A stretch of DNA of 64,000 nt from Picochlorum sp. SENEW3 (Eukaryota), in contig CP120458.1 of assembly GCA_034226945.1 (NCBI GenBank), positions 744,001 through 808,000 of the forward strand. Reading direction: 5' to 3'. Numbering within the stretch: the stretch's first letter is position 1; each line of letters opens with the position of its first letter. This document shows positions 18,572 to 64,000 of this stretch, piece by piece. Under the pieces are notes generated by a model that was given only the letters and a program-made list of their open reading frames with translations, was not told the origin of the DNA and made no database searches. Both the position numbers and the translations under genes were made by a program.

Positions 18572-18592
18572 TATATAAACAATAATTGATCA

Positions 18593-20239: not shown

Positions 20240-22710
20240 ATTTCTTCGATGGCATCATCAGACCCATACCAAAAGGTGAGGTGAGCCCGGACCCAAAAAA
20301 ATATAGACCAATCACGCTGCTGAATGTGGACTACAGAATCTTCACCTTTGTGCTCAAGAATCGGCTGACTCTGCCCATGAGTAAGCTCATCCCTGAGACA
20401 CAAACGGCCTTTCTCCCTGGACGACACTCAGCGCAGAATATATGGATTCAAGATGCGGTGCCACACCTCTTGACACACGAAAACAAATGGGCATTGGTGG
20501 GTCTGTGTGACTTCCAAAAAGCATATGATACCATTGACCGGGGTTTTCTGTTACAGATTTGCAGAGAACTCCGAATGCCAGGCTTCCTTATGGCCTGGAT
20601 ACAAGGTATCATGAAGCATACTAGGAACCGTGTGTATGCCGATAACCACATATCGTCATACAAGCAGTTCCACGCGGGGATCCGACAGGGCTGTCCGGCT
20701 CACCCATCCTCTACCTCCTCATTGGGTACATGCTCCACCTCCTCATTGATGCCACGGACATCGGCATCACACTCCAGTGTCCATATAGAGTGGCCAAATG
20801 CCACAATGGGGGACGAGCATTCGATGCATGCAAGCCCACCACCGTGACTCTAAAGTTGAGCCAATATGCAGATGATAGCAAAGTGTTTCTCGGCAGTCAA
20901 GAGCAGGTCAAGACGTTCAGGGCCTGCATGAACATATTTCATCAGGCTACTGGACAACGATTGAATCGAGATAAGACACACCTGCTGGCCATCGGCAGGA
21001 TACCCTCCACACTGCCTCGTGCACTGGAGGGATTCCAATTGGTGACAGAGGCCAAGGTGCTGGGTATCACCGTGCACCATGGGACCACACCACCGACGGT
21101 CGACTGGGACAGCAAACTGAACAGCATGGCAACGACAGCCAAGGTCATCAAAGCTAACAGGATCTCCTGTTTTGGAAAGTTCCGATTGTGGAACACCTTT
21201 GTCATTTCGAGAATCTTGTATGCTGCAGAATTCACCAGAGTGCCACAAGAGGTCCTGAGAGAGATCACCAAGCTCACACGAGAACTGCTGCCTGATAATG
21301 CTCGCTGCTGGAGTACGACACGAATGTCGGACCCACCACAAGAAGGAGGTCTAGGCTGCCTCAACTTTGCAGCGCATACCCAAGCAAGACAAGCAAAATG
21401 GTGCTTGCGGCTGCTACGCGTGGGCACATCGCAACTGTGGTCGCAGCTGGTGTGGAATGCCTTCCTTCTACACCCACATGATGCTCATATTACCTCCACC
21501 CAGTGCTTGCGCGAGTGCGCATTGCCGCCAATGACGACCATCGTCGAGGGACAAGCATATCTGGTCTCGATCCCAGCGTGCATCGAGACCATCCAGGCAA
21601 ACAGGACCCAGCCAGAGCAACAGACTTGGTACAGGGACGACTACCACTGGACCATCGGCCAAAAAGCCCACCCGATGAAGAAGTATACAGTGAAGCTGGG
21701 CACTCGCTTGTTATCGATGGAAGCTGAAGGACAGCTAGAGAGGGCCGATGCCTATAACAGATGGCTGTATGCCCTCTGCGGAGCCACACAGGCTCCGGGC
21801 AGCCCCCTGATCCACCAACACCTCTGGAAGCTCCCGATGGACAATACGTGGAAGGAGCCGTTCTGGCATGCGTCCATGGGCGGTTTCATCCGCTCGTCGG
21901 GGTCGAAGCCATGCGCATGTGGCATGTGCGAGACACCCGACATCCTTCACCACTTCAAGCACTGCCCTGTGGCAGCAGCCGTGTACGGTCAGCTGTCGGG
22001 CGAGTTCATCCATGCAGAAAAAGTGCCGTTCCTCGTATGGACAGGAACACCTCCCCAGCATGTGCCAAAAAGTATATGGCTCTTCATCTGCGTCAGCGCG
22101 GTGTATGCCATTGACAGAGGCAGACGCTACATGTACAAATTGAAGTACCATACAGAGGGCCCAGTCCCCCAAACAGATACCATTGTCAGCAAAGGAAAGA
22201 GCATCGCCGTTCAGACCTTCTGGAACCTCCTCCATCTCCACGCCAAGAAGATGCCTCAAGGCAATCCAGAGCACGCCACCCTCCCAATTATAGCCTGGAA
22301 CACCAACACCAACAGCTGGTTCCCCAAACCACCACCAGGGGTGCAACTTGTAGGAAGCATCCATTAGCCAATAGCTATCCAAACATTCTCTCAGCGATGG
22401 AATAAGAAGCATGGCCCAGAGGTCCATGGGCTGCCAGAAGGCAAAATCTTCCCAGTGCCTCCACAACACACTTCCAGGCTTGCCTCGTCGTGTGTGGATT
22501 CCACTTCTTCCCTTCCATCACTGAGAACGAATGGTTTGAGTCAATTGTTTGCAATCCATCAATTATTACACCTTGGCCTAAACGAGGTGATGGTAGTGAG
22601 GATGAGTAAAGGCTCCTTCAAGGAATTGAGCCCCTCAATCCGAATTTGAGGATTGTGCTCATCTTTCACTATGCATCACCACCGGGCATGTAAGACTGGA
22701 AAATAAAAAA
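20240..22710 (+). mobile_element. LINE family B (L1/Tx1-like), 5'-truncated: RT, CCHC knuckle, 3'UTR, A-rich tail
   Basis: YRPITLLNVDY, DFQKAYD, GIRQGCP, QYADD, CACG..ILHHFKHC; frameshift near 20700; ends ctggaaaataaaaaa. Confidence 0.92.
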
Positions 22711-27456: not shown

Positions 27457-28464
27457 TCAATTGACTTTACGAAGCCAGAGAGATCCTCCACCAAGAGATA
27501 GTCCTTTTGAAGCGATAACATCACGCAAGATAAACTCAGCAGCATAATGCACTGGAAACATGACTTCCCAGTCATTATTCTTGTGTAAAAATGCAGCCAC
27601 AAAGTACTGTTCCGTGTATGATCTATTCTCTTTGTACCACGAAGGTGGATAATCGTGGGGTATAAAGATATCATGAATATGGACCCATACACCTTTCTTC
27701 AGCCGAGGGAGAATGTATAACATCTCATAAATAACATCACCATATGGCTGTACGACATGAGAATTATCTATAAACAGGATATCGTTCTCCTGGAGCCTAT
27801 CAAAAAACTTTACTTCTACCTGTTGAATAACATTTACTTTAATGTCAACACTGTCTCCCAGTGCTTTAATGACATCACTCCTGTATGGTTCAATGGCTAC
27901 ATGCTTTATGGACAGATTGTTTTCCTCTTTGATCTTTTTCCTGGCTGCATTGAAAATCATCGTGGAAAATCCTGCACCTATTTCAACGATGAGTTTCGGA
28001 TTGTTTAGCCGAGTCATACTCCATATGACTGCTTCGTCCAAAGATCCAAAACTCAAGTCCAAGTTCAGGTCCAGTCCAGAGTTAGCAATTTCATGAAGAT
28101 AAGGTTCCATTCTTGTCCAAGTACTCTCGATGATGTCGTCATTGTAATAGACAATATTTCGAGGCAGTGAGTTGAATGTCTTACTGTAATCCGCAATCAA
28201 CTGGCTGTCAACAAGTGGATTTTCATACTTGAGCAAGCTCTTAGCAATCTGGAAAAGTTTGTCATAATTGTACTCGGTAGAATCATCTCTTACAGGATGG
28301 TTACAAACACGTTTCTTCATCCAGAGAGATGCTATATACATGTGTATAAGAACAAGATAGAAAACAATCAATGTCCCATTAGTTCCATTGGCCGATAAAG
28401 TACTGTTGAATCGCCGTCTGAGCACCCTGAAGGATGCCTCCGTCCACCAATTTCCCATTGGCAC
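27457..28464 (-). CDS. Class I SAM-dependent methyltransferase (Methyltransf_24-like) with predicted N-terminal membrane anchor
   Basis: IVEIGAGFST, ILFIDNSH and LKKGVWVHIHDIF motifs; hydrophobic LIVFYLVLIHMYIASLW segment. Confidence 0.85.
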   Translation of the reverse strand: MPMGNWWTEASFRVLRRRFNSTLSANGTNGTLIVFYLVLIHMYIASLWMKKRVCNHPVRDDSTEYNYDKLFQIAKSLLKYENPLVDSQLIADYSKTFNSLPRNIVYYNDDIIESTWTRMEPYLHEIANSGLDLNLDLSFGSLDEAVIWSMTRLNNPKLIVEIGAGFSTMIFNAARKKIKEENNLSIKHVAIEPYRSDVIKALGDSVDIKVNVIQQVEVKFFDRLQENDILFIDNSHVVQPYGDVIYEMLYILPRLKKGVWVHIHDIFIPHDYPPSWYKENRSYTEQYFVAAFLHKNNDWEVMFPVHYAAEFILRDVIASKGLSLGGGSLWLRKVN

Positions 28465-28877: not shown

Positions 28878-28963
28878 TATATAAACAATAATTGATCAAA
28901 GATCGTAGTGTTTCTGAACATAACGAGAAGCTCATACTCCTCATCGAGAGGCAACCTGCGACG

Positions 28964-30292
28964 ATGGCCACGGCTGTCGCCAACCTCCAGAACTTTATGG
29001 AGGCTCTGCGAGAAGCAGAAAAAGCAACAAAGTCAGCAAGAGTGACTTTCACCACCACCCTGCAGTGCGAGAATGGAGAACCGGAACGTTCGTACATTCA
29101 AAATTTGAAATTGCGAATCGACCGATCCATCATCTTGCACCTCGAACAAGGGTTGCAAGCCTACGGAAATCAACCTTTATTGCAAGATAACATTGAAGAT
29201 CCCCACAAGATGATGTTCACGGAGGAGAAGATCGGCCACCACTATGCCACCAAAACAAAGACACTGAGGATTTTCTGGAATATGTGGGTGCTGCGGGAAT
29301 TTCAGCCACATTTCGGAAAAATCGTCAATGACGGGTCCTGGATGTTCTTTGAACATGAAGACAAACAGTTCCCGGTGACTGTACAGTATGAAACTCAGAC
29401 ACAGACGCAACAAGCCATCTTACGGGGTGTCCCAACTCGACACCGGAGCTGCTTCAACAGTTCTTGGGAAGTATCATGCAACACTTGGCAAACAAAGGTA
29501 ACATCTCGAAAGAAGCGGAGATAATGACATGCGCACCTCGCAGCCATACGAGGAACGCCGGAGAAATGCCAGAATACCTCCATGCAACAGAATGGCTCAT
29601 CACCTACAAGGACAACAGGCCAGGACAGAATGGCACCATCCCAGTGGGCCCAACAGGACCTGCACTGGAGTGGCAGGTACTCAGACCCCGCCGCCCACAT
29701 GTCTCATTGGACACAGTACCAACCCTGGCCAACTACCCAGTGAGAGAAGTACAGTATGCCGCCATGGTGGAGAACAACGAAATCCAAACCGACGATTTCG
29801 TGAACATCACAAGCGAGGAATTCGCAGCCCAAGTAAACCAGACACAAGAAGCACACACAGAAACACAGGACACATCAGCACCCCAGCCAGCACAACAGAT
29901 GGAGGAGGACCAACAGGAGGCACCCAACACCGAAGAACACGACAACCTTGTCGACCCACAGCACACCGCCGCCAACCAACAGGATGGAACGAATGAAGCT
30001 TATGACACAGAGGGAAGAGGGACCAAGGGAAGCCGGCAACACAGAGGACTCAGAGGATGTGGTGTCTGCAGAGACACGCACTGTGGCGAGCAACACAGCG
30101 ACGTCAGGCCTGGACAACTCTGAAGAAGCACACAACAATCTGCAGGACCTGATAGGGGAGGAGAGCCAGAGGAGGATCACAAGAGCCTCGACCAAAAAGA
30201 GGGAGCAGCAAGGCTCACCAAAAAAGAAGCTAGCCACAGGCCCCTCACCAACGGCATCGCCTCAGAAGAAGGCGCATGCCATCCGCAAGTAA
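28964..30292 (+). pseudogene. LINE-A ORF1 (frameshifts near 29443 and 30000)
   Basis: Pieces 28892-29524, 29464-30123 and 29948-30292 join into one protein when compared with the other copies; acidic low-complexity C-terminal half and a basic tail. Confidence 0.75.
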
Positions 30293-30302
30293 ATCATTAT
30301 CC

Positions 30303-33300
30303 ATGATGATGAACGGCTTGAACTTCATGACATTCAACGTAAGAGGCTTGACCCCAAACAAATACAGTGCCATGATGAAGCTGTTAGAAGATCACAGGAT
30401 TGATATTGCCCTGATACAGGAAACCCATCTCAAAGGAAACACAGACGAACACAACTTTACAGACCTACTCGATAGAAACACACAAGCAGAATGGAAAACA
30501 TTTTGGCACAATGATCGCCAACACGGCAGAGCTCGAGGTACAGCAATTTGGATCCGAACCTATCGGCAAGGCAGAGCACCAATTCACCTCCACCCCAGCA
30601 CAGTGACAAGGAAAGGCATGGGCCGCATGATCAGTCTTTCACTGGACTGGTCGGGACATAAACTAAGAATAGGAAATGTGTATATGCCTACCACCTCCAC
30701 CTCCAACCACTGGACGATCAGCACGGCTCTGATCAACCACATCAAGAAAGATACACAGAGAACACAGGGAATCATTTATGCTGGAGACTGGAATTTTGTT
30801 GAAGACCAGACACTGGATACCACCTCCACAAAGAGAATCAACAACAAACAAGAACAATACCTCATCATGTACTGGAAAGAAACTGTAGGGAACTCGATCA
30901 CAGAATGCCAACAGGAGACACTGAGACAGAAACACATGTACACACAACACCATGGAACCATGGAAGGAACTATTCATAGCCGCCTGGACCGCTTCTATGC
31001 CTCGTCAGACATGACCAGATATATCACACAACCTATCAAAACGATAGAGATCCACAGCCACGGAATAGTATCAGACCATAAGCCAGTCATCATGAGCATC
31101 ATCGGAAATTGCCCCATAAAGATGCTGCACCCGTGCAGAAAGAATACATGAAAAGGATTAAAACCGCAGCAAAATGCCACCCACTTGCAATGAAGGAGGC
31201 GAGGAACGCATTCGAGGCTTTCCTCTCCTCATTCCAGGGTGGTGTTTGGCTCTCGGAGGAAACCCAAGGGTCTCTGCCGGACACTGACAGACATCGGATG
31301 ATACTCGAGCAGTATCCACATATTAAACGCCAACTGGGGAAAATATGGAACCAGGCCTCGAACCAAGCAATTGAAGCACTGAAGCTGGCTTTACATCAAG
31401 CCGAGGAACAGGGCATTGACCGACACATCAAAGATTGCAAACGACAGCTGCAGCAAGGGCAACAGGCAAATCGATCGGATTCACACACGTGTATTCCAAA
31501 TGACGCAATGGATAAACTCTCTTATCAGCTGCTGATGAGACCCAAGGGGAGCAACTGCATTGGAAGCTTGACTGACCCAAAGTCACGGTATACTTATACC
31601 AGTCCCAAAGGCATCGCAAATTGCCTTGCCAACACGATTGCAGAGGTATCAAAGCCTCCGCAAACAAATCAGGAAGCCCAGCAGGAACTGATCGATTTGA
31701 TTGCGGAGGAAGATCGCACTGTCTTCCCGACCTTTTGTAACCCCTCAGAGACAATCAGCTCACAGGAAGTCGCCAAAGCCATCAGGAAAATCCGCAACTC
31801 CTGTCCTGGAGATGATGGGTTGCAGATTATCCACTACAGAAAGTTTAGCAAATGGATGTGTCCGATCTTGGCCACACTATTTTCCGCCATCATCGCAAGG
31901 AACGAGATGCCAGCCAAATTTCATCATGGCACGATCAGAGCCATTGAAAAGGGAGGAACCCTGACAGATCCCACCAATTATAGACCCATCACCCTACTCA
32001 ATGTGGACTACAGAATCTTCGGGTTTATCCTGAAGGAGAGAATGACTTTGAGCCTCCAGAACTTGATTCCAGCAACGCAGACAGCCTTCCTGCCTGGAAG
32101 ACAGTCAGCAGAAAACATATGGGCAGTACAGACCATCCCCCTACTCCTACACAGAGACAACAGAGAAGCATTGATCGCCCTATGCGACTTTCGCAAAGCC
32201 TATGACACGATTGATAGAAGCTTTCTGTTTCAGATATGCCATACACTCCAGATGCCAGACTACCTGGTGAGATGGATTCAACTCATGCTCCAGGAGACAA
32301 CCAGTAAGGTATATGCAAACCATTGCTTTTCAGACTACAGACAATTTCATGCAGGGCTGAGACAGGGATGCCCAGCGTCCCCACTACTCTACCTGTTAAT
32401 TGGATTTATGCTAGCTCGCCTGGTACAACACTCAGAACTGGGCATAACAATACCATGTCCACTCCAGACAGACCCAACACAGTCAGATACAGCCTTGAAG
32501 CTATGCCTTTTCCAGTTTGCTGACGACAGCAAACTCATTCTCGAAGAAGATCAGATCCCGCGCTTTAAACAGATTATGGCGCTGTTCGCTGAGGCAACAG
32601 GGCAGCACTTGAACAAGGAGAAGACCAAACTCTTGCCCATAGGCGCCCTCAAGACCCTGCATCACAAGCAACAGATCGATGACTTCAAGGTCACAACAGA
32701 AGCAAAAATCCTAGGTGTGACACTACACTGCGGAATTGACGCTCCGACATACCATTGGCAAAGCAAAATGTCCCAACTCCAGCAGCTCACGGATAAAATC
32801 AAGCGTATGACAGGACTGTCCATCTTTGCAAAATTTGACCTCTTCAACAAATTTGTCACCTCCAAAGTACTCTATGCTGCAGAATTTATCTATACACCGC
32901 CATCCATAGTCGATGGCATCCATAAGATGGCAAGGAAGCTTTTACCACCAGATGCACCATGCTGGAAAAACGAAGCAATACAGTCTAGAGCCGATCTTGG
33001 CGGCCTGGGCATGCTCCCCTTTCGGGAACATATCAAGGCCCGTCAATATAAATGGCTCATCAGCTCTCGTGTTAGGCACCACCACCGTCTGGTCCACGCT
33101 GGTATGGAATGCCACAGCACACTACAGAAGAACCAACAGGCCAACAAAGATCATGGCTCTCAGGCTCCTCACCCAGCCGTGTGAGTTACCGGGAGTCCAC
33201 CCGGCTCTCATGGAATACAGCGAGGACAACGAGATCTCATTGCACTCGCTGATCAACTCAGTATTCAGGAATCCAACAGAAGAAAGACAGTGGAACTACT

Positions 33301-41534: not shown

Positions 41535-42084
41535 CAACTGCCATCGTCGCAATGCGCCACGAACGACCTTGGCCGTCCCGCCTTTTTCCACAGCGTCAGG
41601 TGAAGCAGATGTATCTAATAGGTGAATCGTTAGACATATGCAACATCGGAAGCAGAACAACCGACAGGATGGGTCTGATTAGGACCATCTCTGCAGGACT
41701 CGGCAGTGATAAGGGCCATCCTTCGCTTTGATTGAGATAGATCCTAGGATCCTAGGACAGAAAAGCCAAGCGGTCCTCACCATTCATGTAAACTATCAGC
41801 GATGGTTCATTGAGACATCATGCCAGGACAGCATCAAACAGGTCAGCCGTCCTGTAGTACCAGGTAGTGAGGTTGCAAAGTTTGGGTCCTAAACCATGGG
41901 CTCAGGACAGGGTTGCAAACTTTGGAGCTGCAGAGTCAGTCAGGTGGCTAAGCAGCCCTGAATGTGTCGACCACTAGAATCTGACGTATACAATGTAAAT
42001 GCGAGCTTGCGAATATGGATCAAACAAAAGAGATGTCGCCACCATCGATCAAAGTACCCAATTGGGCCGTTTGCCAATCGACTG
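41535..42084. repeat. ~500-bp dispersed repeat, copy 2
   Basis: Colinear with 34735-35233; supplies the apparent ATG of the Helitron helicase ORF. Confidence 0.85.
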
Positions 42085-44270
42085 ACCATGGAGCTTCGTG
42101 GGATAGGAAGCTGAAGCGGTGGACGCGCCGCAAGCGGAACACTCGATGTGTTGGTCGACTGCCTTTTGTCCACCCGCAGGACAGGGTACGTTGGTGCTTG
42201 AAGCAATTGTTGTGTGCCCTGCCGGGGGCCACCTCCTGGGACGACCTGAAGACGGTGAGGAATACAGAGGAAGGAGGGAACGCGACCGTGTGTCCCAGCT
42301 TCGAGGAAGCGTGCCGGCTGCGGGGGATGCTGGAGAATGACGACCTGTGGTGCAGCGGCATGGACGAGGCGGTGAGGGAGGCCATGCCCTGTCAGCTCCG
42401 CATGATGTTTGTGGAGATGCTCGCCTTCTGCAATATTAGCGACCCGAAAATGTTGTGGAACAGGTACAAGACGGCGCTGAGCGAGGACTACCTGTACGAA
42501 GTGGACACCAAGTTGAAGGAGAATCCAGAGGACTGCATCCGAGACACGGTGGGCGAGGACGAGCATGGTCGATGGTCGTGGAGGGCCGTGCTCGACATCC
42601 AGGATCTCCTCGACGAGTACAAGAAGACGTTGGAAGAATTCGGTATTCCACGGCCTCCGGACCATTTGATCACGTCCGAGATCGAGAAGGAGGTCGGTGG
42701 GTACTTCAACTTCAGCTACCAGGACATCGAGGCCAACGTGGCCAAGCTCAATCAGCAGCAGAGGGCGGCGTTCGACCAGATCCTCGAGGCGGTCAACGCC
42801 TGCGAATCTGGACGGTCCTCAGGATGCAACGTGTTTTTCCTGGATGGCATCGGGGGGTCGGGGAAGACGTTCCTGTACAAGACACTGCTCATGAAATTGA
42901 GGAAGCAGAGCCAAGAGGAGCTCGAGAGAGGCGAGCATCCCATTGCAGTGGCGATGGCCTCGAATGGCCTGCCAGCGCAGCTGTTACCGAACGGAACGAC
43001 GGTGCACAGACGATTCAGGCTGCCCGTCCAGGACGACTTCGACGGCGAGCAGCTGATCTGCAACGTTGCCAGGCAGTCGCATGAGGCTGACCTGCTGCGC
43101 CGAGCGAGGCTGATTGTCTGGGACGAGGCTCCGGCGATGAACAAGTGGCAGCTGGATGCCGTGGATCGATGCCTTCGCGATATCATGGCACGGCCCGACA
43201 CGGTCATGGGTGGCAAGGTCGTGGTGCTTGGCGGGGATTTCAGGCAGTGTGGGCCTGTCATGAAGAATGCCAGAGGGCGAGCAAGAAGGATGGCCGAGGT
43301 CAATGCGTCGCTGACCCATTGGACCCATTGGCGGGCCGTCAAGGTCCTCAGGCTCCACATCAATATGAGAGTGGAAAACTGCGTGCGCCCCGAGTGCAAG
43401 TCGCGGCTGGAGAGGTGGAGCAGATGGCTCAAGGACGTCGGTGATGGCCACGTGCCGCTGGATGACCACGGGCGCCTGGAAGTTCCCTCCTCCATCGCGT
43501 TCACCCCCGAGGAGGGGGATCCGGAGAGTATGGAGAAGACGTTTTTCGAACATGTGTACGCTGGCCTCCAGACCAAGCGCGGGCAGGACAGGGACGACTT
43601 CCTAAAGGGAACAGCCGTGTTGGTTCCCAAGAATGACACCGCCACCAGGATCAATGACAGCCTGCTGGACGCCCTCATCGACGGGGAAGAAGACCGCCTG
43701 TTCGTATCCATCAATGGAATTACCGATGGTCGGCACCAGAGGGACGATGCATACCCGGAGGAGTATCTCGCCAGCATCAAGGAGAGTGGCCTGCCGCCAC
43801 ACGTCATCAGGCTCAAGGTTGGGGCCCCCATCATTGCCCTCCGCAACATCACCAAAGGCGTGTCCAATGGCACGCGAATGGTGGTGACCAAAATCCTCAA
43901 CCATTCCATCAAAGCCAGGGTGGTCCACGGTCCCAGCACCGGGCGGGAGGTCCTCATCACCAGGGTGGTGATGACGCAGAGCCTGGGCTCCTTTGTGCTG
44001 CAGAGGACACAGCTGCCCATCCGCGTGGCCTTTGCGATGACCATCAACAAAGCACAGGGGCTCACCCTCCAGAGGGTGGGAGTGTACCTCCAGGACGATG
44101 TCTTTTCACACGGACAGTTGTACGTGGCGTTGTCTCGGTGTGGAGATGACCAGAACCTGTGGGTGTTTGGGCCACAGCCGGACGACCAGGGAAAGCTGTG
44201 GATGAAGAACGTGGTGTACAAAGAGATTCTGATCGATACTTACCATCACGAGATTGCAGATCCAGTGTAA
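42085..44270 (+). CDS. Helitron Rep/Hel C-terminal part: PIF1-family helicase (HUH Rep domain missing)
   Basis: Helitron linker VGRLPFVHP..LKQLL..GATSWDDLKTV..SFEEAC..GMLENDDLW; Walker A GIGGSGKT, WDEAP, GDFRQ, NGTRM, AMTINKAQG, HGQLYVALSR. Confidence 0.92.
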
Positions 44271-48069: not shown

Positions 48070-48789
48070 TCCCCTATTAAAAAAAATTTAATAAACGCAA
48101 AGAGAGCGGGTTTTGATAAATTTCGCGTAAGTGCCATGTGCTGCGGCATTCCCGCTTATAAGCGGGATCACCGCCGTATTTGAGGGTGGCGCCCAATGGC
48201 CAAAACCCCAAAACTCGGCGGCGTTCCCGCTTATACCCTACGACGGCCGACCGGGATTTCCAGGTAAATCTTGAAACCCCCATATCTCGTCATTTATCGC
48301 GAATTTGACCATTCTGACTGATTCAATAGAATCTACGGATGAATTAGAGTCTTCTGAATACCTTATCTGTGCGAAATGGATGGATACAGTGAAATTGACG
48401 AACAAAAAGGTGTGCTCACTGCCCCCTCACTGACCCTGAAATCTGGAACTTTGGCCGGTCGGCCCCGTCCGAGTGCTGAGACCAGGTACTAGATGGCCCA
48501 AAACAGACCATTTATGGAGCGACCAGACCTCCCGAGCATCTATTGTTGATAGAAATGGTAATAAATCAGATTTTTTAACATTATGTATGAAAATCGGAAA
48601 GTTTGGTGGATGTCGAATTGACTCGGCCAAGTCCGCATGGCATGGGCATCTGGAAGCCACTGCGGGGGTCCTGCCAGTGCGTGTAATTCGATATGATCAG
48701 CATATCTAGGGGTCATATAGGGATATTTGATACACATAAAGACATCATCTTGATCGAAGTCGGCTCCTGTCTACTTGTTATCCCTCTAA

Positions 48790-51700
48790 CTAGTCCATCG
48801 TCCACAAATTGCCCTTCTTATGGACAAGCAGCTGGCAGGTCTCGCCCGTGGTCAGGTCCCTGCTAAAAAAGATTTGCTCGCGTATATCATGTGTCTGTAT
48901 GAAGAAAGTGCGATCGTTTGGGTCAGGTGAGACGACCTGGAGGCCACTGAGATGCTTATGTTCTCCAAGATGCTGAAGTCTCTTGACTTCAATGAAAAGT
49001 TCTGAACCATGATCGAACTGCAAGTGTATTACGTGTAGAATGATGTATTTTGAATTTATCTTGGAAGATAGACATAGTACAGTACTTACCTGCATCGTGA
49101 CGATGCTCTGTATCCTGCCAAACACCTCTCCTGGTGTGCTTTCTGTCTGGAAAATGACACCACAATTCGACGTCTTTGACTTTGAATTAGAGTGTTCCTC
49201 TGTCTCAAATATCCTTTTCCCTACAGTAAAAGATTTGTAAAAATATGCCTCAGTTGGTTGGATACCCACAATGCCCATCTCTCTCCCTGTGAAGTTCTCA
49301 GGATCTTCTCCTATGCAAAATTCATCATGCCATTCCCAGAAAGTGTCGGCGTCTTCGCAGCCAACCTTTTCGACGGCGGTAGAAAATTCCTTCCAATGCT
49401 CACATATGTATCTCTGTACATCCGCGAGGGGATAACCGTTGTCATCAAGCCGTCTTCTCTTGGGTGGACCTCTGATGACAATGCCTTCTTCCCCGTTTGG
49501 GAGAGATGAACCTGTATCTGGAAGATCCGCGTGATTACATGCAGTGCGCGAAAGGAAGCGCAAGCTTTCTTCGTAACACTGTCGATGCATGATGCACGCT
49601 CCTGGGAGAAATCTATTGAACGTTTTCCTTTTCAAATTTCCCAGCTTGCTTTCTGTCCCATATGCCCAGGTTTCTCGAATGGGTCCCAGATATTTTACTT
49701 GCCTTGGAAAATGGCCCATGCTGTGTATTGCGAGTGTCATATACTTTGGGTCGACGCACTTTTCTAGGTCACAGATGGCTTCCCATATCTGTGTTTCGAT
49801 GCCATCCAAGTCCTGCAGCAAACAGAAGGTATCATTGTGAAACAATAGGAGATCCAGAGCAGAACAAGAGACATACTAGGTGTCGTATCTTATCGGACAG
49901 TAACTTCTCCAAATTGAAGAACAGTTTATGCACAGCATCAACATAATCTTGCTGAATGCCCGCTGCCATAAGGGCACTTGTCATCACCCCAGTCAGTGCA
50001 AAGTCTTTGTACTGCTGTGCCCTCTTTTTTGTCAGTGGTGGTTCGTCACTGTTCGATGATTCGACAGCCTGAAAAAATCTGTCAAAAGTTGATCGTACTG
50101 TAGAATTTGGTTTGATATCTTTCAGGTACTGCCTGATTGATGCCTTTTGTTCAGCATCCATCATTTCAAATGCAATTTTCTCCAGTCTCTTCACTGCAGC
50201 AGTTTGTAAGGTAACTCGTAAAAAACTGTCTAATCAATCCATTTTTTTGATAAAATGTTTCAATACGCTCACCTGTATTAGCGAGACAATGCATAAAGCA
50301 GAGCACATGCCCCACAGATAGATCATAGTATGGCAGTCGTGCAAATTCAGACTTCCCTTGCACCCCCATAAAAACTGTTTCCTTTGACAGATCTGGGCAT
50401 CTTTCCAATTCATCCATCCTCTTCCGAATAAACTCATCATCTTTTATTATTATCTGATGTACGAGAGGCGAGCCATCACCCTCTGCGAGTCGGTATGGAT
50501 GGTCCAAAGGCAATAGATGAGTGTGACCAAAGTAGTGCACACCATTTGCTTGTTGCCCGTGTATCGTGCAAAGTCTACAGCCGTGATAATGACCAGCTTC
50601 GGATTGCATAGAGCACGCTTTTGATGCTCTACCATCTTGTAAGCAGCAGGTGCATGCGCCCTTGATCAGGACCTTATCACTTCTTCCTGCATGATTCAAC
50701 TCCCATCCTTTCTCCCACAACTCCAGTAGTTCATCTACAATTGGCTGTATGTACTGCTGCAATTTGGCACCTGGCTCCTTGGGACCATCTATAAGCGTTA
50801 AAATATGCAAATTTTCTTCTCGCATTCTCACCTCTGGTGGTAGATTGAAACAGACGAGTATCACTGCAAACAAAGTATAAGCAACCCCATCAAAAGGTTG
50901 GAATCCGTCAGCAAATATCCCAAGATGGATAGGGATATGGTCGTCCGAGTAAAAGAAATTCGGGTATCTTTTCGATAGCGATTGGTACATTTGCCCATGA
51001 AAGATGGATGACATGTAATCATTGCTACCAGCACTGCCAGTGTCTTTCCAGTATTTCTGATTACTCTCCTCCACCAGCTGGCAAAAGACGGGGTCCAAGA
51101 ACTTTCTGGTAAGATAATTTTTTATCGAGTCTCGCCGTATACCTATTTTCAAGGTTGAATCGCATGTGTCATTGCCGGGACCATCGCTATGGCAGCACCT
51201 TGTGCCCCTTGCATTGTGAGGCTGGGGTGGATGATGTTTGTCACATGTAACCTCCAGCAGAAATCGCAGACCCATCCTGTGAACTAGGGAGCGCAAGTCT
51301 TTGCCAGTGGGATATCGTGGGTTGTGGGTCGAGCAGTAGTCAAACAATTCCCAGACGCTGCCAATTGGAGTAGCTCTCTTCAAGCAGAAGCCTAGGAGAT
51401 CTCTGACATCCTCACCAATAGTTCCTCCACTATCTTCAAACAATGGCTGTGAGCAGTACAGTCTCCATTCTTCCAAATTACATGCCATGTCAACAAGATG
51501 ACTTTGCTCGACTGCAGTGCCATAAACCTCCTTCTCTGTCCTCTTCTGTGCAAATGCATCGGCTGCACATTCAAGCTGCTTCTCTAGATCCATTCCTTCT
51601 CCTTCCTCTTGTTCTTCTTCTTCCTCCTCCTCTCCCTCTTGTTCTTCTTCTTCTTCCTCCGCTGGACCGCTACCTCTCTCAGTAGCATCCTCTTCATCAG

Positions 51701-52109
51701 GCATCTTCCCGTTCGTAGCTATGGTGAAATTCATGGTTTGAAGCCCTGTTTGCTTCTCATTATCTGGGATCCAATCGCTGTCATCTTTGGCATCAACTAT
51801 ATCAGGACCATCAATGTGAAAGTCCATGTCGATGTTGCTTTCTTCAAGGCAACTGGAGCGTGGATTTCTTCTTCTTCTTCTGGATACACTGTAGTTAACA
51901 ATGTCTTCAGAGACATGCTCCAATTTTGGGCGAGTAACTGGGTCAGACTTGCCTTGCTTCTTCATGGTATATTCCAGAGTTCTATAATGGCTTGTCATGG
52001 TTGAATATGGGATGTATTCGTCACCATAACATGTTCCTGGCTTCTCTCTACCCCATATCCTGCACTTCTCCAAAGTGCATTTGCACTTGCCCGCTTCAAC
52101 AATATTCAT
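48790..52109 (-). CDS. EnSpm/CACTA-type transposase (spliced)
   Basis: ADGFQPF, NLPPEVR, DGPKEP, IVDELLELW, QDGRA, CRLC, FMHCL, HSMGHF..LGPI..WAYGTE; ORF breaks coincide with plausible GT-AG introns. Confidence 0.88.
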
Positions 52110-54496: not shown

Positions 54497-55914
54497 TATT
54501 TGCTTCATGTTATGGACGTTCAGGATATATATATACCACGCTGGTACCTCCATGGAGCAGGCTGAATACATTTGGCCAGCTTCCACTCTGTTCCCATGCT
54601 GCAGAAATTTCACGAAGGTAGTCGTCAGAACTCGATTTTTTGGGCTTGCCACAGGATGCATCCGAGTGAAATGTATACTCTAAACAAGTTGATGTGAGCC
54701 TTTGTGTGAAGGGGTGAATTTTTGACGACTACCTCGGTGAAATTAATGGCAAGGTTTCATGGCACCTTATGAGCACGCAAGTCGTCCGCCCTGTCCATTT
54801 CAATTTTCTTGTTTATTTTCGGTGCGTAAAACTATGTCAATTATTTATATTAAAGTACGTTTTATAGTTTCTAGACTGTAATTATGGGCATGTACGCCTA
54901 TTGACCTTCCTGTTGGACCAACTAACTCACGCACAGTCACTGTTCCTCCGTGCAGTTTTCCATGTAAAGGCTGGACCGCAAGTGTAAATATAAGGTAAGT
55001 ATTTACTATTCTGATAATTGAGTTCATAGGGCTTGTCGTATGAGACTTCTTGACCAATACTGACGTATCGATTGTGCTCGCAGGTTGTTGCAAGGCAGGA
55101 GTCAAGCAAAGGCCCGATTCCTCACCTTGCAAAGGATCAATGATAAATATATTTAATATATATTAAATTGTATATCAATTACATGTGTAATATAGAGCAA
55201 TCGAATGCAAACCGAGCCCCGAAAGGGCCTGGGTGCTAGCCTGGCAAGGAAAAGGTTTCAGCTACCCAGCCGAGCCTGGCGAGCCCGGAGCGATTCCAGA
55301 GTTGAGAAGTTGCATATCCCCGTTTTGCTCCAGACTTCTCATATAGATTCGTGCTGATATTATGATCAATATGGAGCAGACGAGAGGTTAAAATTCTCTC
55401 GTATGTTCAAGTTATCGCGAAACTTCGTCGAGCGATGCTACCTGGAAATCCCGGTCGGCCGTCGTAGGGATAAGCCGGATCACCGCCGTGTTTCCAAACC
55501 CCATTCTGAAAATATGGCGGCATTCCCGCTTAGACAATCACCAACCGTCATGAAGCCCGTTGGCCATCCACAAGCACCATAACCTTTATATCATGTGTAC
55601 CAAATCAATACACTATATATAAGAATATATAAAATTGCCATCCAAGCGTCGAAATATGCTTGTGGCACGTTCTGGACTGCTCCATCCGAGCCCAACCGTC
55701 AAAGTCAGAAGAAGCGCTGAGATGCCGTGTTTGCCTTCCAACACTATATCAGGGATATACTATAAATATATGTGCAACAAGTAACCTATTGCTGCATTAT
55801 TTGCAGCGCAATGCTCTCGTTGTCAGGGTCGCACTTCCAGGTGAGTCGGTTGGCTGTTAGTTCTGTGTGCGATCTGGATCAGTAGACGTTTTTACATTCT
55901 TCGTTGTAGAGTTA

Positions 55915-58802
55915 TTATTCTTCAATCACCATGTCCTCGTATTGCGCCACAGAATTGCTGGGGTTGGGGTTCCTGTGCCAGCTTGGTTGAGGAGGGATGT
56001 AGGCCATATTGGCATTGAATGCAGGGGCTGGATTGGTATTCTGGTTCCGACACTCGTTGATGCCAATCTCCTGCAATTGTCGGATGCCCTGCATGAATGT
56101 CTGATGGAGCTCCATGAACCGGCCATCAAGATGTCGGGGCAATTCGTCGAGGATCGAGGATGCGACTCTCTGGTCGTTGTTGAACTGTATTTTGGTCAGC
56201 ATCCTAGGGTCCGTGATTTGCCGTCTTCCAAGCGTCAAGATGTCGCAGCTTGAGCCATGGCTTGGTGCGGGAAAGGCCTGAACTAAGGCTCGTTCCCACT
56301 CCGCGTTGACATGAGTGTCGTTCCTGATCTGGACAGATTTCTGGAGTTTCTCCGCAGGATCCATATCGTCTTCATCCGTAGCGCCTAACGCTATGACATG
56401 TGGACATGTGCCGAAGAAGGAAAAGCAATGACACGTGCACGTTTTGTAGTACATGTTGACAAAGTACTTTCTGCGTGGTTTTGGTCCCAGGTGGTAAAAG
56501 CACACTGGCAAGCATTGATACACCGTGTTGTCCTCATCAATCTCGACATCGGACAATTCCACATGATGGTCTTCTGCACCATGAAACGGAGCTGGTGTCG
56601 CCATCTTCTGGACATACTCGTGTTGGCGGCTTTTCACGACAGACGCCACCTTTCTCACCATCTCGTAGGTGATGGGGTACTTTTTCATGGCAGCTTCGAC
56701 ATGCATACAAATGTCGTCGTCGTTGTCATCACAAGTGCAGCTGAGGTCTCCGGTACAGCAGTAGAACATCTGATTATCCACATTGAATTTGATGAGGCAC
56801 GAGTCGCTGAGGGACCCCTGGCCAGTGGCACAATAGGGCTGCATGGTTCTGCCACACGTGTCGACACCTGTCAAATGCTTGTTTTGGTTCACTCGCGCAT
56901 TGGCCTTTTCGGCCCCTTGTAATCGCTTCTGCAGTCGATCAAGGTATCGTGGTGTTACTTCGTCGAGGAATTTTAGGATGAGGCTATCTCTGCGACCCAG
57001 TCTCTCCCTGTCAAGGAACTCTTCTTGGACAGTCCTGAAGAGCCGCTCAATCAGATTGTTGGTGTTTGATTTCAAGAAGGCAATGTGTTTCCTTCCATAT
57101 TGAGACCACCGATCGCTGATTGTCATCCAATTTTTGATGAAATATTCCTTCATCTCGGCCAGGTTTTCATTCTCCAGGAAGGTCATGAATTCATATGCCA
57201 CAGAATCAAAGGCACCCTCGTCCTTGACGAGCCTGAGCTTGTTGACATATCTGAAGATTGTGTTTCGGTTGGATTTGTCGCGATCACTGCGTCCAGACAC
57301 GCCACTGCCGTGGCTTTTCATTTTGCGCCCGATGCTCTGCATGAAATGGAAAGCACACAGGACCCAGAAGCAGTTGAGCTGGTCCAAAGCAGAGATGCAG
57401 CATGTGGATTTGTCAATCATGAAGGTGATGTCATCGATCTGTACATCACATGCATCTACAACGGCTCTGATGAATTTTTTCCATTTGGTGGAATCCTCGC
57501 CCCCCGAGCATATGCAGTAGGCCACTGGGAAGCCCATGCCATATGGATCTCGCACCAGGAGAGCCAATGTCACATCACCTTTTCGATTCAGGCAATGCAC
57601 AGCATCAGCGAACACCATTGTATGGCAGGCTTTCATCACCTTTCTTTGCTCTGGGCTGCAAATGGCGATCTGCACATCGTCGCCTCGCTCAAAGTATAGA
57701 AAGTGTTCGCGGTGTTGATTGTACAGAGCCTCGCAAGCATCCAGGTCGTTCCCGGAGGCCTGTCGCTTGTTGTATGCTTTTTTGACTCTAATTGCCATCG
57801 TCTTATTCAAGAGATGTCGTTCCTCAACCGTGAGATCATGCCGGGTGGCACCTGTCTGATACTTGATAACGTTGACAGCCTTTGCAGGTTTGAATCCAAG
57901 GTCGTACAGGTCATCCAATGCCCTCTTCAGTCGAGGTGTCTCAGGCTCGTGGTAATCTCCAGAACCCGGTTCGTGATTTGTGTGGGTCTGAAGTGCCTCA
58001 GCGTAGATGGCATCCTCGTATCGAAACTTTGTGAGGCGGGTTCTGTATTCGCAGTTGACTTTCTTTCCTTGCTTGCTTGTTGCCGGCACTGCTTTCTGCT
58101 GTCCCCTTGAGCAAGTCGGTACAGCAATGGTCTCCGTCGGCTTTTGCAATGCCACTTATGTTTCGGAGCGTTCATTGGCTCGACGCTCGCAGGTCTTGCC
58201 AAAGAACGGGTCGGAATGGACACAAGAAGCCAACCATGCCACATAGTCCTGATGCCCCGCTTCCTTCCTCTTCCGCTCCAAGATGTCAAGGGTATCGTCA
58301 CCTGGCACCAAACTCTCGTTACCTGGATGGCGAAAGTGGTGATGATGGATCAGCAAGGGCATCGAATTGAAGTTGTTCGTGAGATCGTACCTTTGCTACA
58401 TTTGTGAACCAGTCTGCTCTTCTCCGCTGTCTCAAACAGCTTTTTGATCTCGCAAAAGGTCAGATTTTCGAATTTGTAAATGATCCTGCGCGGAATGTTC
58501 GCATTATCATAATCTGAAGGTTGATGAGATACATACTGTTCGTTGTCGAGCAACAAAAATCTCGTATACTTTAATTTCACGTCAATCTGTGTTGTCTCCA
58601 TGCTGGGATATTCTTCTTGCACAGCCACGGTGCACATCAAGGAGGTTCTCGGACCATCCTCGATGACAGCATTCACGACACCACAAGACCCGTCTGGAAT
58701 GGATAGTTTGTTGGAATTACCAGCACCGTACACCACCACTCGCTGCCCAATTTTTGTTGGATGAATAGGAAAACGCACTGGCGGGCATGCAAACACTCCC
58801 AT
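55915..58802 (-). pseudogene. MULE (MuDR-type) transposase with SWIM zinc fingers; N-terminus interrupted
   Basis: FADAVH, GFPVAY, FMIDKS, LCAFH, TNNLIERLF, CTC..CMHV and CTC..CPHV in ORF 55915-58155; upstream pieces 58156-58362 and 58350-58802 are separated by a stop and a frameshift. Confidence 0.88.
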
Positions 58803-60601
58803 TATTTCTTTTGTGTCTTCTGTCGGAGAGGATTCTGTACCAGAGTCAGAACGGTGGTGCCGAATTCCTGAGCCAAGACCAAGTGGGTTGGATCGATGGC
58901 ATCTCGTCTGAACTGCGCCTCCCTTCGTCCTTGGCCGACTACGACATGACCAAAAATGATTTTGCCGACTATATGGAGAGGGTCATTCTGCCCAAACTCC
59001 GCTCGTCGTTCTTGTTCGTTGCTCCGAGGAGAAGCAACGATGCAGAGGCCCCATGGGGAAAGCGAATCCAGGTGCCGTCCGTCCTCCCCCTGGCAAAGAA
59101 GAGGGCCTGTCATATCAGCATTCCGACTGTGGCTATCACCGGTCTCGCAGAGGGCCTGGCACAGGAGAGTAGTGACATTGCTAAAGCGATACATGGCCCC
59201 CGGGAGACACTGCACGAGGCACGGCAAAGGGTGAAATCAATCGAGTCGAGAATCGTGGACATGGACAAAGAAAACTGGTTGACCGACGAGCAACAGAAGG
59301 TTAAACAGGAACTTGAAGATAATAAGAAAAAAAGCAAGCTCGAATTTGAGCAGACCCCGACCGGAAAGCGGCACCGGTATAAGATGTCTGACGAGGAAAC
59401 CAAGCTGTGCAAGGAATTGACAGACAGGAAGAACGCGTTATTGAATGGCAGCCAAGAGTACGTGGATGCTCGAGAAGAAGTGACAAAAGCCGAGTTGCGG
59501 TATCAAGAGTGCTGTTGGACGGCCCTGTTCAATATCAAAGTCAGCAGGTGCCAGGACGGACACCAGTGGCTGTTTGGAGGGCAGCTGTCCACGGACGGTG
59601 TCGACGTGTCGATGCAGTATTATCGTCTGAAGACGGACGACGAAATTCGTGCCGACGAGGAGGAAAAGGAAAGGATAAAGGCCAGGGCGGCGGAGAAGGC
59701 GATAGAGTCTTCGACAGCAAAGCCGAGGAAGCGAAAACGAACGAGTAGGGCGGGGCCAGGCACCCCGCAATCCTCGAATGTCTCCAGTCGAGGGAACCTG
59801 GACAGAGCAAAAGACCTGCTGGCCGCATCGCCCGACAACGCATGGGTCTTCGATCCAGGGCCCGATGGCCACGTGGGCATCAAGCTGGAGCAGGGCAAGA
59901 TGAGGGAGCTCTGCCAGGAGAACAAGCGACACGGGGACTACGAACCGTTCGAGACGATGAGCCTGACCAACCACGAGATGCAGTCGCGTGCGGGCATCCT
60001 CAAGCGAAAGGCGCTGGAACGGGCGTGGTCGCAGGCCAGGCCAGGCATCGGGGCATGGAAACAGGAGGCACCCACCAGAAAGGTCGGAACAGCAAGGGAT
60101 ATGCTGGCATTCTGCAGAACGACCAATAGCCACCTGAACACGGTGTATGGATTTTATTCCCAGAACTGTTTCCGGAGGCAAAGGTTCTCTGTGTACACGA
60201 GGACGCAACGAATGCTGGACTCCATGGTTGAACGGATCTGCGGGACGAAGGACAGGGAGGCTCAGAGCAAGACCGTGGTTGTGTTTGGGGACGCCTCGAT
60301 CAACTCGGGGAAACACGGAAAACAGAGGATCTGCTTTCGGGCCCTCAAGGACCTGCTGCGGCAGAGGTGCTGTTTCATCGAGATTGGCGAGTTCCGAAGT
60401 AGCCAATACTGCTGTGCCTGCCATGCCAAATTGGAGGACCCCCCCGCGGTGGGGCTTCACAAGCGCTGGAAAGTACGCCGTTGTATGAACAATGGATGTG
60501 AGCGTGCTTTCTGGCAACGAGACGTGAATGCAGCCATCAATCTCGCCAAGTTTTTCCTGTGGGAACTCAACGGCGAAGAGAAACCAACATGGTTTATATG
60601 A
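58787..60601 (+). CDS. Fanzor1 (eukaryotic TnpB-like RNA-guided RuvC nuclease), probably N-terminally truncated
   Basis: [17 protein letters not shown], RuvC-I FDPG, VVVFGD, RuvC-II GEFRSS, zinc finger CCAC...CMNNGC, Ruv[15 protein letters not shown], terminal KPTWF. Confidence 0.9.
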
Positions 60602-62172
60602 CAGTGCCGTCCTCGATTGTTGCATCCTTGGTGATGACAATCACTCCGTCACGGATCACGTAGCCCTCTTCTTCTCGCATGGCTTCCTGTACATTGTCGA
60701 CATTGACGATACGGCAGAATCTTCCGATTCTTGCATTCTTGTCCACAATGGCACCCTTGATGTGTGTCCCTCTTCCAACTCCAATTGGCATACAATCACT
60801 GAATACCTCACACTCTCCTGACTGTTCGTAATAATCTGCTCCCATCAACAAAGAGTCTTCAATAATACAATCTTTTCCGATCTTTGATCGAAGGCCAACA
60901 ACTGAGTGCAACACCTTGGATCCAGAGTCAACTGTGCATCCATCTCCAATAATCGACTTTTCCACAGTGGCATTGATCACCTTGGAAGGTGGAAGGAATC
61001 TAGACATTGTGTAAATTGGAGCATCTTTATCATAGAAAGAAAAGGCTGGGTTTGGTGTATCGGTCAGTGCCAAGTTGGCATCATAGAATGCCTTGACAGT
61101 TCCAATATCCTCCCAGTAGCCATCATATAAATATGCCTGAACATGCATGCCCATGTCCTTTGCACCTGGGATAATGTCGCTGCCGAAATCGTGTTCCTCT
61201 GTGAAATGCTTTCCCAAAAGATCCTGCAGTGCTGACGCTTTGCAGACGTAGATGCCCATGGATGCAATGTAGGGCTTCTCGATTGCTTGATCCTTGGACA
61301 ACCCCAAGACTGTTGTATCAACCTGCATGGCCTTGAGAGCGTCACCCTTTGGCTTCTCCGCAAACTCCACGATCTTCCCTGTGTCGTCAATCTTCATCAG
61401 ACCGAAAGCTTCTGCTTCCTTCTCTCTGCATGGGAGAGCAGCGACGGTGATGTCTGCACCAGCCTGGCGATGTGCCAGGACAAACTGAGAGTAATCCATT
61501 CTGTACAAATGGTCCCCAGAGAGGATCAAAAAGTCCTCAACTCCATCTCTGCATGCTTCATCAAACAACCACAGATACTGACGGACTGCATCGGCAGTAC
61601 CTTGGAACCATTTCTTGCTAGAAGTCGTCTGGGATGCAGCCAACACTTCAACAAAACCTCTATTGGTATAGCCTCCCACACTGGCATTGTATGCCTGAGA
61701 CAAGTGACGATTCAACGATGCAGAATTGAACTGTGTCAAACAGTAAATTTTATTGACCCCAGAGTTGATGCAATTTGACACGGGGATATCGATCAATCTG
61801 TAGTTTGCACCCAATGGCACAGCAGGCTTGGCACGCTTTTTGGTCAAAGGGTACAGGCGAGATCCAGCTCCTCCTCCAAGAATGATACCGAGGACCGTCT
61901 TTGACATATCATAGATTGTCTTGTCGCTTGGAGATGTAGTAGAAACCTTCTGTCCGGCATCCTCATTCACATCCACGGCAGCTCTGACAGTTGAGCCATG
62001 AATCTGCACAAATACATACACACACAGAGGGGTGAGCAACGTCAGGGTGTCACGGTCAGACTCGACAAAGACATCAGTCACATACATTTTTACGCTGGAA
62101 TGTTTGCCTCTGGTTCACAATAGATCTAGATCGCACATGTTGCCCACGGAATGCGTGAACCGAAGATAGCCC
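60594..62172 (-). CDS. APS1: ADP-glucose pyrophosphorylase small subunit, plastid-targeted (first exon not resolved)
   Basis: [70 protein letters not shown]; intron 62004-62085; Ser/Arg-rich transit-like exon 62086-62172. Confidence 0.95.
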
Positions 62173-62519
62173 TGCACAGCAAGAGGATAAGAACTAGGTA
62201 CGTTGGACCAACCGATGGAACTTTGAGGACTCGAATGGCCCATAAAGCAATAAAAATACTATATTAATGCATTAAAACAGATTCCAATGCCCAGCAGAGT
62301 GCAGTACAGTGAAATATATTTTCGAGGAAGCGACAGATTGACTCGTACCTGAAGACGTGTTTCTTTCGAGTGAAAACTGCATTATGACCGAAATGAACCC
62401 TCTCAAATCGATTATAGTATTTAAATATATATTTGGAAGGAAAGGATGGCCGGATTAATGGCCATCGCGTTGATTGATGATATTGATGCAAACCTGCCAT
62501 GATGATCTTACATCCTGCC

Positions 62520-63717
62520 TTACTTGGTTCTTTTGTAAATACGATTCAATAATGGCATGAAAACATCCTTTGGAAGCACATCTTGTCCTTCTATCTTGGC
62601 AATCATATCATTATAGCTGCTTGTTTCGTATTCTTTGAACAACTTTTCCAGTTCAAGGTCATTGTACAGGCTCTTGATGGCTGAGACTGATGCAGCGTCT
62701 GACTTGCCATAGTTCTTCTCTATCACAGATTTCTGTTCATCGGTAGCCCGTTTCAATGCTTGAACAACAAGCCATGAGCATTTGTTGTCCTCAATGTCGG
62801 TACCGATTTTCCCAATGGTCTCTGGATCTCCAAAGCAGTCCAGATAGTCATCCTGGATTTGAAAGTACTGCCCCATTGTCTTGCAAATGTCTTCTGCAAT
62901 GGCATATGCCTTTGGGTCCGAGGTCCCTTGTAAACGGAGTCCACACGCGATTGGCAAATAAAATGTATAGAAAGCAGTCTTGTACGTCACGATACGCATG
63001 TATCTTTCCTCTGTATACCGAGAAAGGTCGACAGATCCAATTGGGGCAGTGGTGGTATCAAGCAATTGCCCATGGGCAGTCTGATGCGTGACTTCATGGA
63101 ACAAGTCCAACAAATCAACGTACACCTCAGACGTCGAAAAATGCTTTTTCAAAATACGATAGATACAAGATTCCAGAATAATTCCGTCATTGATGGCAAT
63201 GAGACCAATATCTGGTTGCTTGTACCAACATGGCTGCCCTCTTCTGGTGATGGAATGGTCCATAATGTCGTCGGCTACCAAAAAGTACGCTTGTAACTGC
63301 ATTGGTGAGAAGAGTGAGAACAATGTGTGTGCGGGTGAATACAAACAAACAATCATATATGATGATGGTGCCATGACAACGTACAAATTCAATGCACCAT
63401 CCCAAGATGCGTGCCTTGTGAATCTGCTCCTCACTCATCTCTCCCTCACCAACTGACGCTTTGAATGCATCTAAAACCGCCATTCCTCGATTTAATTTAC
63501 CATGCGGTACATTATAATCGATCATCTGCAGTTGAACATGCAACCATGTGTTTAGGAACATAAATTCAGAATTCACATTGGGAATCACCACGCACCCTCT
63601 TCATCCATTCTTTCGTCTGTTCAGGCTGACCATCTCCCAACAGATCGTCATGAACAAGCTCATCACGCAATTGATCAAAGACTTTTAAAAATTCCTGCAG
63701 ATACATGTGCTCATATC
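62520..63717 (-). CDS. FPS: Farnesyl diphosphate synthase (multi-exon; 5' end approximate)
   Basis: YNVPHGKLNRG, LQAYFLVADDIMD..TRRGQPCWY, GQLLD, YKTAFYTF, FQIQDDYLD, GKIGTDIEDNKCSW. Confidence 0.95.
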
Positions 63718-64000
63718 ATGTGGTGAACTGACTGCTAGCAACTTCCCTTGTAGGACACATCATAGGCATCAAGAGAAGATAGATGTACAATCTATAGAAT
63801 CGAATCATCATAACAACATACCTGCTTCTCCTGATGCGCATCAGTCTTCTGTTTAGTATTATTGCCGGACATTTTTGTTGTGAGAAGACACAAATTGGAT
63901 CAGTCAAGAAGCTAATAATATCTGTATCTCTGGACAAAATACTACTCCCAGCACTGCAAGGGCATGTTTTTCTATTAAATAACGCCACGATCAGTTCAAT

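Follow-up and report, generated by a model that had tools for sequence, protein, structure and literature searches.

A doubly truncated, probably dead Fanzor1 fragment joined to the 3' end of an AGPase gene in Picochlorum sp. SENEW3

The window analysed here is a 64,000-nucleotide (64-kb) stretch of Picochlorum sp. SENEW3 (GenBank assembly GCA_034226945.1, contig CP120458.1, positions 744,001 to 808,000, forward strand), and all coordinates below count from its first letter. In its right part, an open reading frame (ORF) of 604 aa with the catalytic residues of a Fanzor1 RNA-guided nuclease meets, tail to tail, the small-subunit gene of AGPase, a starch gene. The features at this meeting point are the following.

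58787..60601, + strand: the 604-aa ORF as read, ending ...EEKPTWFI and a stop codon; codons 1-7 (58787-58807) and the last three codons with the stop (60590-60601) are non-Fanzor
58809..60589, + strand: Fanzor1-derived internal fragment of 1781 bp, truncated at both ends, with the REC end, WED strands, RuvC and TNB zinc finger
59852..59854, + strand: RuvC-I Asp D356 (VFDPGP), a nearly invariant column that aligns to the IDP motif of SpuFz1
60389..60391, + strand: RuvC-II Glu E535 (GEFRSS), an invariant column that aligns to DEYKTS of SpuFz1
60410..60499, + strand: C4 zinc finger of the TNB domain (C542, C545, C566, C571); C542 and C566 invariant, C545 and C571 nearly invariant
60521..60523, + strand: RuvC-III Asp D579 (QRDVNAAIN), nearly invariant, next to the invariant R578; aligns to NRD of SpuFz1
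60590..60593, - strand: last native AGPase 3' flank, the 4 nt after the stop; Fanzor homology stops at 60589
60594..62087, - strand: AGPase small-subunit main exon, a 497-aa ORF ending ...EDGTVI and a stop codon

The + strand ORF closes with TGG TTT ATA TGA, its stop lying at 60599-60601, and the AGPase frame closes on the - strand with ...GTC ATA TAA, its stop lying at 60594-60596. The last three codons and the TGA of the 604-aa ORF are thus contributed by the flank, the TGA lying in the antisense of the last AGPase codons. At the other end, ATG 58787 and the first seven codons are likewise flank-derived, and the relatives' own N-terminus lies about 375 aa further up.

As a single sequence, the 604-aa ORF gave no match at E<=1 against PDB chains, and the Pfam model Cas12f1-like_TNB reached 24 bits, under its cut-off of 26.3. 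An exhaustive representative search returned 564 relatives at E<=0.001, 93 at <=1e-10 and seven at <=1e-30. We aligned the ORF with 49 of them (alignment A3: P0001 and 48 of the best 150 of the 564, longer ones being taken and short fragments left out), and it fits the resulting profile at E 1.5e-136. In the PDB, the best matches of this profile, each along its full length, were the Fanzor1 proteins of solved structure: SpuFz1 (8gkh; E 4.6e-59, profile positions 6-646), GtFz1 (1.5e-51) and PpFz1 (2.4e-46). The next-best entries were TnpB-like L79, at only 1.8e-8, and TnpB, at 0.046.

An AlphaFold model of the ORF built with the same alignment (predicted local distance difference test, pLDDT, 80.6; predicted template modelling score, pTM, 0.72) has the WED-RuvC-TNB fold according to Foldseek and VIA-align. 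In Foldseek, the seven best PDB matches all belong to Fanzor1 (E 7e-11 to 1.1e-7). The best structural match in VIA-align places model residues 99-604 on SpuFz 264-631 (Z 17.8, root-mean-square deviation 3.5, 321 residues), against Z <=11.5 for Cas12/TnpB chains. The published Fanzor motif, D-X(125,275)-[TS]-[TS]-X-X-[C4 zinc finger]-X(5,50)-RD (Bao and Jurka 2013, PMC3627910), is present as D356, 181 residues, S538-S539, Q-Y, C542/C545...C566/C571, six residues and R578-D579. D383, E541 and D606 of SpuFz1 bind the catalytic metals (Saito et al. 2023); for chain 8gkh_P we used a numbering offset of 394, verified against D383 and E541. The D/E/D triad and C4 zinc finger of the window protein recur in SpuFz1 (8gkh, 9ceu-9cez), GtFz1 (9cer) and PpFz1 (9cf0, 9cf1). 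As judged from sequence and predicted structure, these comparisons show the family of 58809-60589 to be Fanzor1, and closer to Fanzor1 than to TnpB or Cas12.

Much of a preliminary description of this locus is therefore borne out. It had placed an 8-nt overlap between the ORF and the stop end of AGPase, which the ORF list and the sequence both put at 60594-60601; it had named the D/E/D residues and the C4 zinc finger, which the family alignment (n=50) and the SpuFz1 alignment recover; and its assignment to Fanzor1 agrees with the profile, Foldseek and VIA-align comparisons. Its phrase 'Fanzor1 with intact RuvC triad' holds for the triad and the zinc finger but not for the gene as a whole, which has lost about 375 N-terminal residues and begins with a start codon taken from the flank.

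The N-terminal loss is seen in every comparison with full-length relatives, which are 948-1003 aa long (P0123, 948 aa; P0125, P0126 and P0127, 957-1003 aa). Residues 33-603 of the ORF align to residues 383-916 of P0123, and in a second alignment (A1) the window protein starts at ...SERILYQ, residue 379 of the Picochlorum BPE23 protein P0002. In tblastn, P0002 and P0001 cover window positions 58823-60610. The window copy fills positions 209-641 of the 657 in the A3 profile; positions 1-208 are absent, of which 6-208 correspond in the profile alignment to SpuFz1 residues 2 to about 206. The REC/WED module is thus incomplete, the first ~375 residues of the relatives, most of REC, being gone. In the model, residues 1-100 have a pLDDT of 41-59, and the superposition starts only at residue 99. 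The left limit of the fragment can be read from another copy, in a contig of run X8 (a marine metagenome), one of the four runs (X1, X3, X8 and X15) whose contigs we compared with the window. This contig matches from 58809 and has 60 different letters before it, which in frame read ...DRYRGQI, like ...GKYRSQI of P0002. X8 contig 26 has 1209 extra letters beyond 58808, about the size of the missing N-terminal coding part, in an orientation inferred from X15 record 15.

The missing part does not lie in an upstream exon within the window, since a 375-position hidden Markov model (HMM) of the N-terminal block gave no match in a six-frame search of the 64 kb (best E 0.43) and the whole-family profile matched only the stretch at 58809-60589. 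Seven of the 11 A1 rows went into the HMM; the other four, which do not include the region, were dropped. Further copies or remnants of the fragment in the 64-kb window were found by neither tblastn, blastn nor profile. In SpuFz1, N133 of REC reads the target-adjacent motif (TAM) (Saito 2023); in GtFz1, R85A abolishes cleavage and mutations of S123, H126 and Y130 reduce it (Xu et al. 2024). By their residue numbers, these key positions would fall within the lost part.

The C-terminal side is also truncated. P0171, a 51-aa fragment that is 97% identical over 37 aligned residues, reads ...EEKPTVFQRPRTRAEEDIPDV and ...NGEEKPTVFQRPRTRAEEDIPDV, on past the window's ...KPT. P0001 and P0123-P0128 extend beyond this point by 13-45 residues, which include a conserved F-x-R-G and an acidic tail. 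A contig of run X3 follows the window to 60589 and then has 82 other letters, the first 30 of which translate as VFQRPRTRAE, like P0171. Because other copies read on past ...KPT, the window copy is simply truncated at 60589, and at least its last 16 codons and everything 3' of them are missing.

No right end of the element is left, as AGPase follows directly where an omegaRNA would be expected. Rfam gave no match, and the last 182 nt (60420-60601) fold with a z of -1.86, 9 of 200 shuffles folding as well. Among the repeats in 54500-61500, five inverted pairs and five direct families, none frames 58809-60589, and the fragment has neither terminal inverted repeats nor target-site duplications that would mark carriage by a transposon. 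Compared with SpuFz1, the window copy has no counterpart of residues 1 to about 206-263, of the C-terminal tail, of the 3' inverted repeat or of the omegaRNA, and its full-length relatives are ~300-370 aa longer, with a coiled insertion (window residues 133-239). Compared with the 948-1003-aa family itself (metagenomes and Picochlorum sp. BPE23; P0123, P0125-P0127, P0002/P0001), the fragment is collinear from ...SERILYQ to ...FFLWEL at 36-61% identity over the shared part, but it has lost both the N-terminal ~375 residues (LGGYQ...WxGxAR...HxxRC...FW) and the F-x-R-G/acidic tail.

The starch gene, on the other side of the joint, is whole, since its protein is identical to P0283 (Picochlorum sp. 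SENEW3) and nearly so to P0284 (BPE23), with an intact C-terminus. In tblastn, 469 of 469 residues are identical to P0283 and 468 of 470 to P0284, both of which end ...EDGTVI as here; in the more distant P0282 and P0004 the corresponding ends are ...ADGTVI and ...PDGTII. Pfam recovers NTP_transferase (4.3e-62) and LbH_GLGC (8.4e-48), the profile being covered over 1-135 of 135. Within the main exon, real coding sequence spans 60594 to about 62006; a further exon lies upstream, near 62083-62175. Farnesyl-diphosphate synthase (FPPS) lies upstream of AGPase, as in the gene order of BPE23. The 846-aa SENEW3 protein P0283 fuses FPPS and AGPase over window 60594-63900, and in BPE23 they are annotated separately, side by side (P0288, P0284); P0283 looks like two gene models merged in annotation.

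What AGPase has lost is its ordinary 3' untranslated region (UTR), as the preliminary description had proposed: four native nucleotides remain after the stop. In green algae the poly(A) signal is usually TGTAA. One copy lies 8 nt past the stop of FPPS, and on the AGPase strand none occurs within 2.6 kb downstream, a span in which ~2.5 are expected by chance, so that the zero is not significant. It is reasonable to predict that AGPase transcripts run antisense into the Fanzor fragment.

Contigs of the four runs were then compared with the window at the two joints; stretches of the window with no contig cover in X3, X8 or X15 were not taken as absence. The right joint is crossed in X1 by a contig spanning 60562-61292 with 0 differences, which reaches 32 letters left of 60594 and includes 28 Fanzor-side and 703 AGPase-side letters. 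A genuine repeat boundary would leave this pattern in a 31-mer graph. In X15, an oligo-dT metatranscriptome, an AGPase contig with six differences in 682 letters matches only from 60589 rightwards and then has 63 unlike letters; 30 letters of this flank gave no match in the window at up to 3 mismatches. In X8, an AGPase contig matches only from 60591 rightwards, with 19 other letters beyond. Near-identical AGPase with another 3' flank is thus present in two of the four runs and the joint in one, X3 being not judgeable among the pieces listed. Since these near-identical contigs leave the window at the breakpoint, the junction appears young and strain-specific. On this comparison of contigs, the simplest reading is that the AGPase 3' UTR was recently replaced, in an event specific to a strain or haplotype. 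The two sides share one base at the right joint, the A at 60589, which suggests end joining.

The Fanzor core also occurs elsewhere. X1 contains Fanzor variants at partial depth, including a 289-nt deletion form (60199-60487 removed) and a TCT insertion form, and its summed contig depth reaches about 4460 over the Fanzor core against about 450 over AGPase, ~ten times, although summed contig depth is not copy number. Public data hold decayed, frameshifted fragments that are 68-82% identical (P0124, P0130, P0132, P0134, P0142). Degenerate coding remnants, decayed or internally deleted, are common among algal Fanzor1 copies, as at the fragment here. The fragment is foreign in composition: its G+C content at third codon positions is 0.69, against 0.50 for AGPase and 0.49 for FPPS.

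We consider it likely, with a probability of about 0.82, that 58809-60589 is a dead, doubly truncated internal fragment of a Fanzor1 gene, joined 4 nt after the AGPase stop at the edge of a transposon-rich island. Such a fragment would be unable to act as an RNA-guided nuclease or to move, because the part of REC that reads the TAM and holds the guide and the right end with the omegaRNA are gone. A deletion, or the end-joining repair of a break, probably joined a Fanzor copy to the 3' flank of AGPase; the extent of the loss would have been limited by selection on AGPase. As a by-product, the AGPase mRNA would now end somewhere in antisense Fanzor sequence.

Several points weigh against this reading. 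The right joint is bridged only in X1, by the 28 Fanzor-side letters, and the window itself may derive from X1. At 58808/58809, the left joint, none of the contig pieces listed (149 more exist) crosses over, and this joint is known from the assembly alone. Loss of the right end and the omegaRNA is argued from the missing coding end rather than from direct comparison with the DNA of a full-length copy; scans for such DNA gave 18 pattern matches with the protein and 106 with alignment A2 in metagenomes and 68 matches in viral sequences, none of them confirmed. No stop interrupts the 1.8-kb frame and no catalytic residue is lost, as would also hold for a maintained gene. Finally, 8 of 13 displayed differences to other copies are synonymous, in a small, tool-chosen sample with 98 further differences over the whole stretch; this fits a family under selection while active and says little on the window copy.

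The preliminary description had offered two alternatives, a deleted omegaRNA scaffold or a scaffold inside the 3' end of the ORF with antisense AGPase coding sequence as its guide. The first is supported, with the addition that, besides the omegaRNA-bearing end, the N-terminal third is lost and the gene is truncated on both sides. The second takes the open frame, the D/E/D residues and the zinc finger at face value, and some Fanzor omegaRNAs are described as overlapping the gene end (Saito 2023). It is not supported: other copies run at least 16 codons past ...KPT (P0171, P0001, P0123-P0128 and the X3 contig), so that the present end of the ORF is not the end of the gene. The description had itself named extension of other copies past KPTWF with a conserved non-coding end as the mark of simple truncation; what continues in those copies is coding sequence, and the verdict of simple truncation stands. 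With the equivalent of SpuFz1 residues 1 to about 206 missing, TAM-reading REC positions such as N133 included, with a fold at the ORF end that is matched by shuffled sequence and with no Rfam match, and with a guide that would come from a post-truncation junction outside any logic of transposon retention, we regard a working Fanzor1 aimed at AGPase as very improbable indeed.

An assembly artefact would explain the same arrangement if the unique flanks, the side of ORF150 (the left neighbour described below) and the side of AGPase, had been joined through a repeated Fanzor core, leaving one or both joints unreal. The core is indeed repeated in X1, as its partial-depth variants and high summed depth indicate, in each of the four runs contigs break off at both joints or close to them, the left joint is unbridged among the pieces listed, and X8 and X15 carry other sequence at both joints. 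Yet the X1 contig crosses the right joint with no difference, if perhaps not independently of the source sample, both joints are in frame with simple flanks, and a collapse would not normally strip exactly both gene ends. We therefore hold an artefact to be decidedly unlikely. Exaptation of a truncated fragment, either as a RuvC/zinc-finger protein with no guide function or as a convergent unit that tunes AGPase or supplies antisense RNA against active Fanzors, is also unlikely. It draws on a frame open across 604 codons, on an AGPase gene deprived of its native 3' UTR, and on the contrast between AGPase and FPPS in downstream TGTAA. Against it, the junction is absent from the two near-identical AGPase contigs of other runs and so is young and unconserved, the start codon is accidental, no promoter of the Fanzor family is left, and the TGTAA contrast is within chance.

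A dead fragment may still have consequences. It is a long shot that a young repair scar gave an essential starch gene an antisense-Fanzor 3' end that acts as an accidental trans-silencing trap, or that ties the stability of AGPase mRNA to Fanzor transcription; if so, read-through transcripts of AGPase would be complementary to all active copies of this Fanzor family. On the preferred reading of a truncated relic, the ORF beside this metabolic gene, for all its perfect RuvC triad and zinc finger, is a transposon relic and not an RNA-guided system aimed at AGPase. The locus would then be a natural example of a core metabolic gene with its entire 3' UTR replaced, sister strains retaining another flank, and would be a convenient site for studying mRNA 3'-end formation in a compact algal genome that has undergone such a loss.

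Fanzor1 genes are described as multi-copy transposon passengers that occur sporadically in green algae (PMC3627910; PMC12633428), and an Auxenochlorella preprint describes Fanzors in Auxenochlorella, Chlamydomonas and Chloropicon (PMC12633428). Among the literature matches listed, no title or abstract names Fanzor or Picochlorum, and the two terms co-occur in some full texts. The Fanzor1 family of Picochlorum-type algae is long, at about 950-1000 aa, and recently active. Unlike known algal Fanzor1 passengers, the window fragment cannot be assigned to a carrier transposon, and its neighbour, a MULE-like (Mutator-like element) gene, need not belong with it.

The fragment lies at the right edge of the transposon-rich island, window 13500-58800, which takes up most of the window to the left of AGPase and includes the following features.

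31109-33184: reverse transcriptase ORF
42015-44270: PIF1-like helicase ORF
48790-49845: DUF4218
50166-52109: Transposase_21
55915..58155, - strand: MULE/SWIM-like transposase ORF of 746 aa; Pfam ZSWIM1-3_RNaseH-like at 1.8e-4, below the cut-off
58350..58802, - strand: ORF150, the left neighbour of the fragment, belonging to no family; its 5' side is clipped by the fragment

ORF150 has no Pfam match and nothing above 0.85 in Atlas; its single relative, P0296 (83 aa), is 87% identical and starts nine residues further up. Its summed depth in X1 exceeds that of AGPase several-fold, which makes ORF150 a probable piece of a repeated element. A composite MULE-Fanzor element was considered as a candidate in view of the size of the 1209-letter extension of X8 contig 26.

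The MULE-like gene is covered by X15 oligo-dT contigs (55908-58485), one of which skips 69 nt at a GT..AG joint, 55838>55908, immediately beyond the 746-aa ORF, which suggests a transposase gene that is spliced and expressed in a related strain. At 57518 and 57557, each of the four runs has contigs that depart from the window into the same alternative letters, and these shared exits indicate a second version of the MULE-like element in every sample. Further left, a pair of 56-nt inverted repeats, 91% identical (48211-48266 and 55439-55493), brackets Transposase_21 and DUF4218 and is possibly the terminal repeats of a ~7.3-kb element of EnSpm/CACTA type. In the repeat-rich part, methyltransferase-like ORFs lie at 17117-18016 and 27457-28464 (TylF 4.4e-38; Methyltransf_24 4.2e-9), and ORFs of similar length recur at about 18586-20847 and 28892-31151, which hints at a duplicated block.

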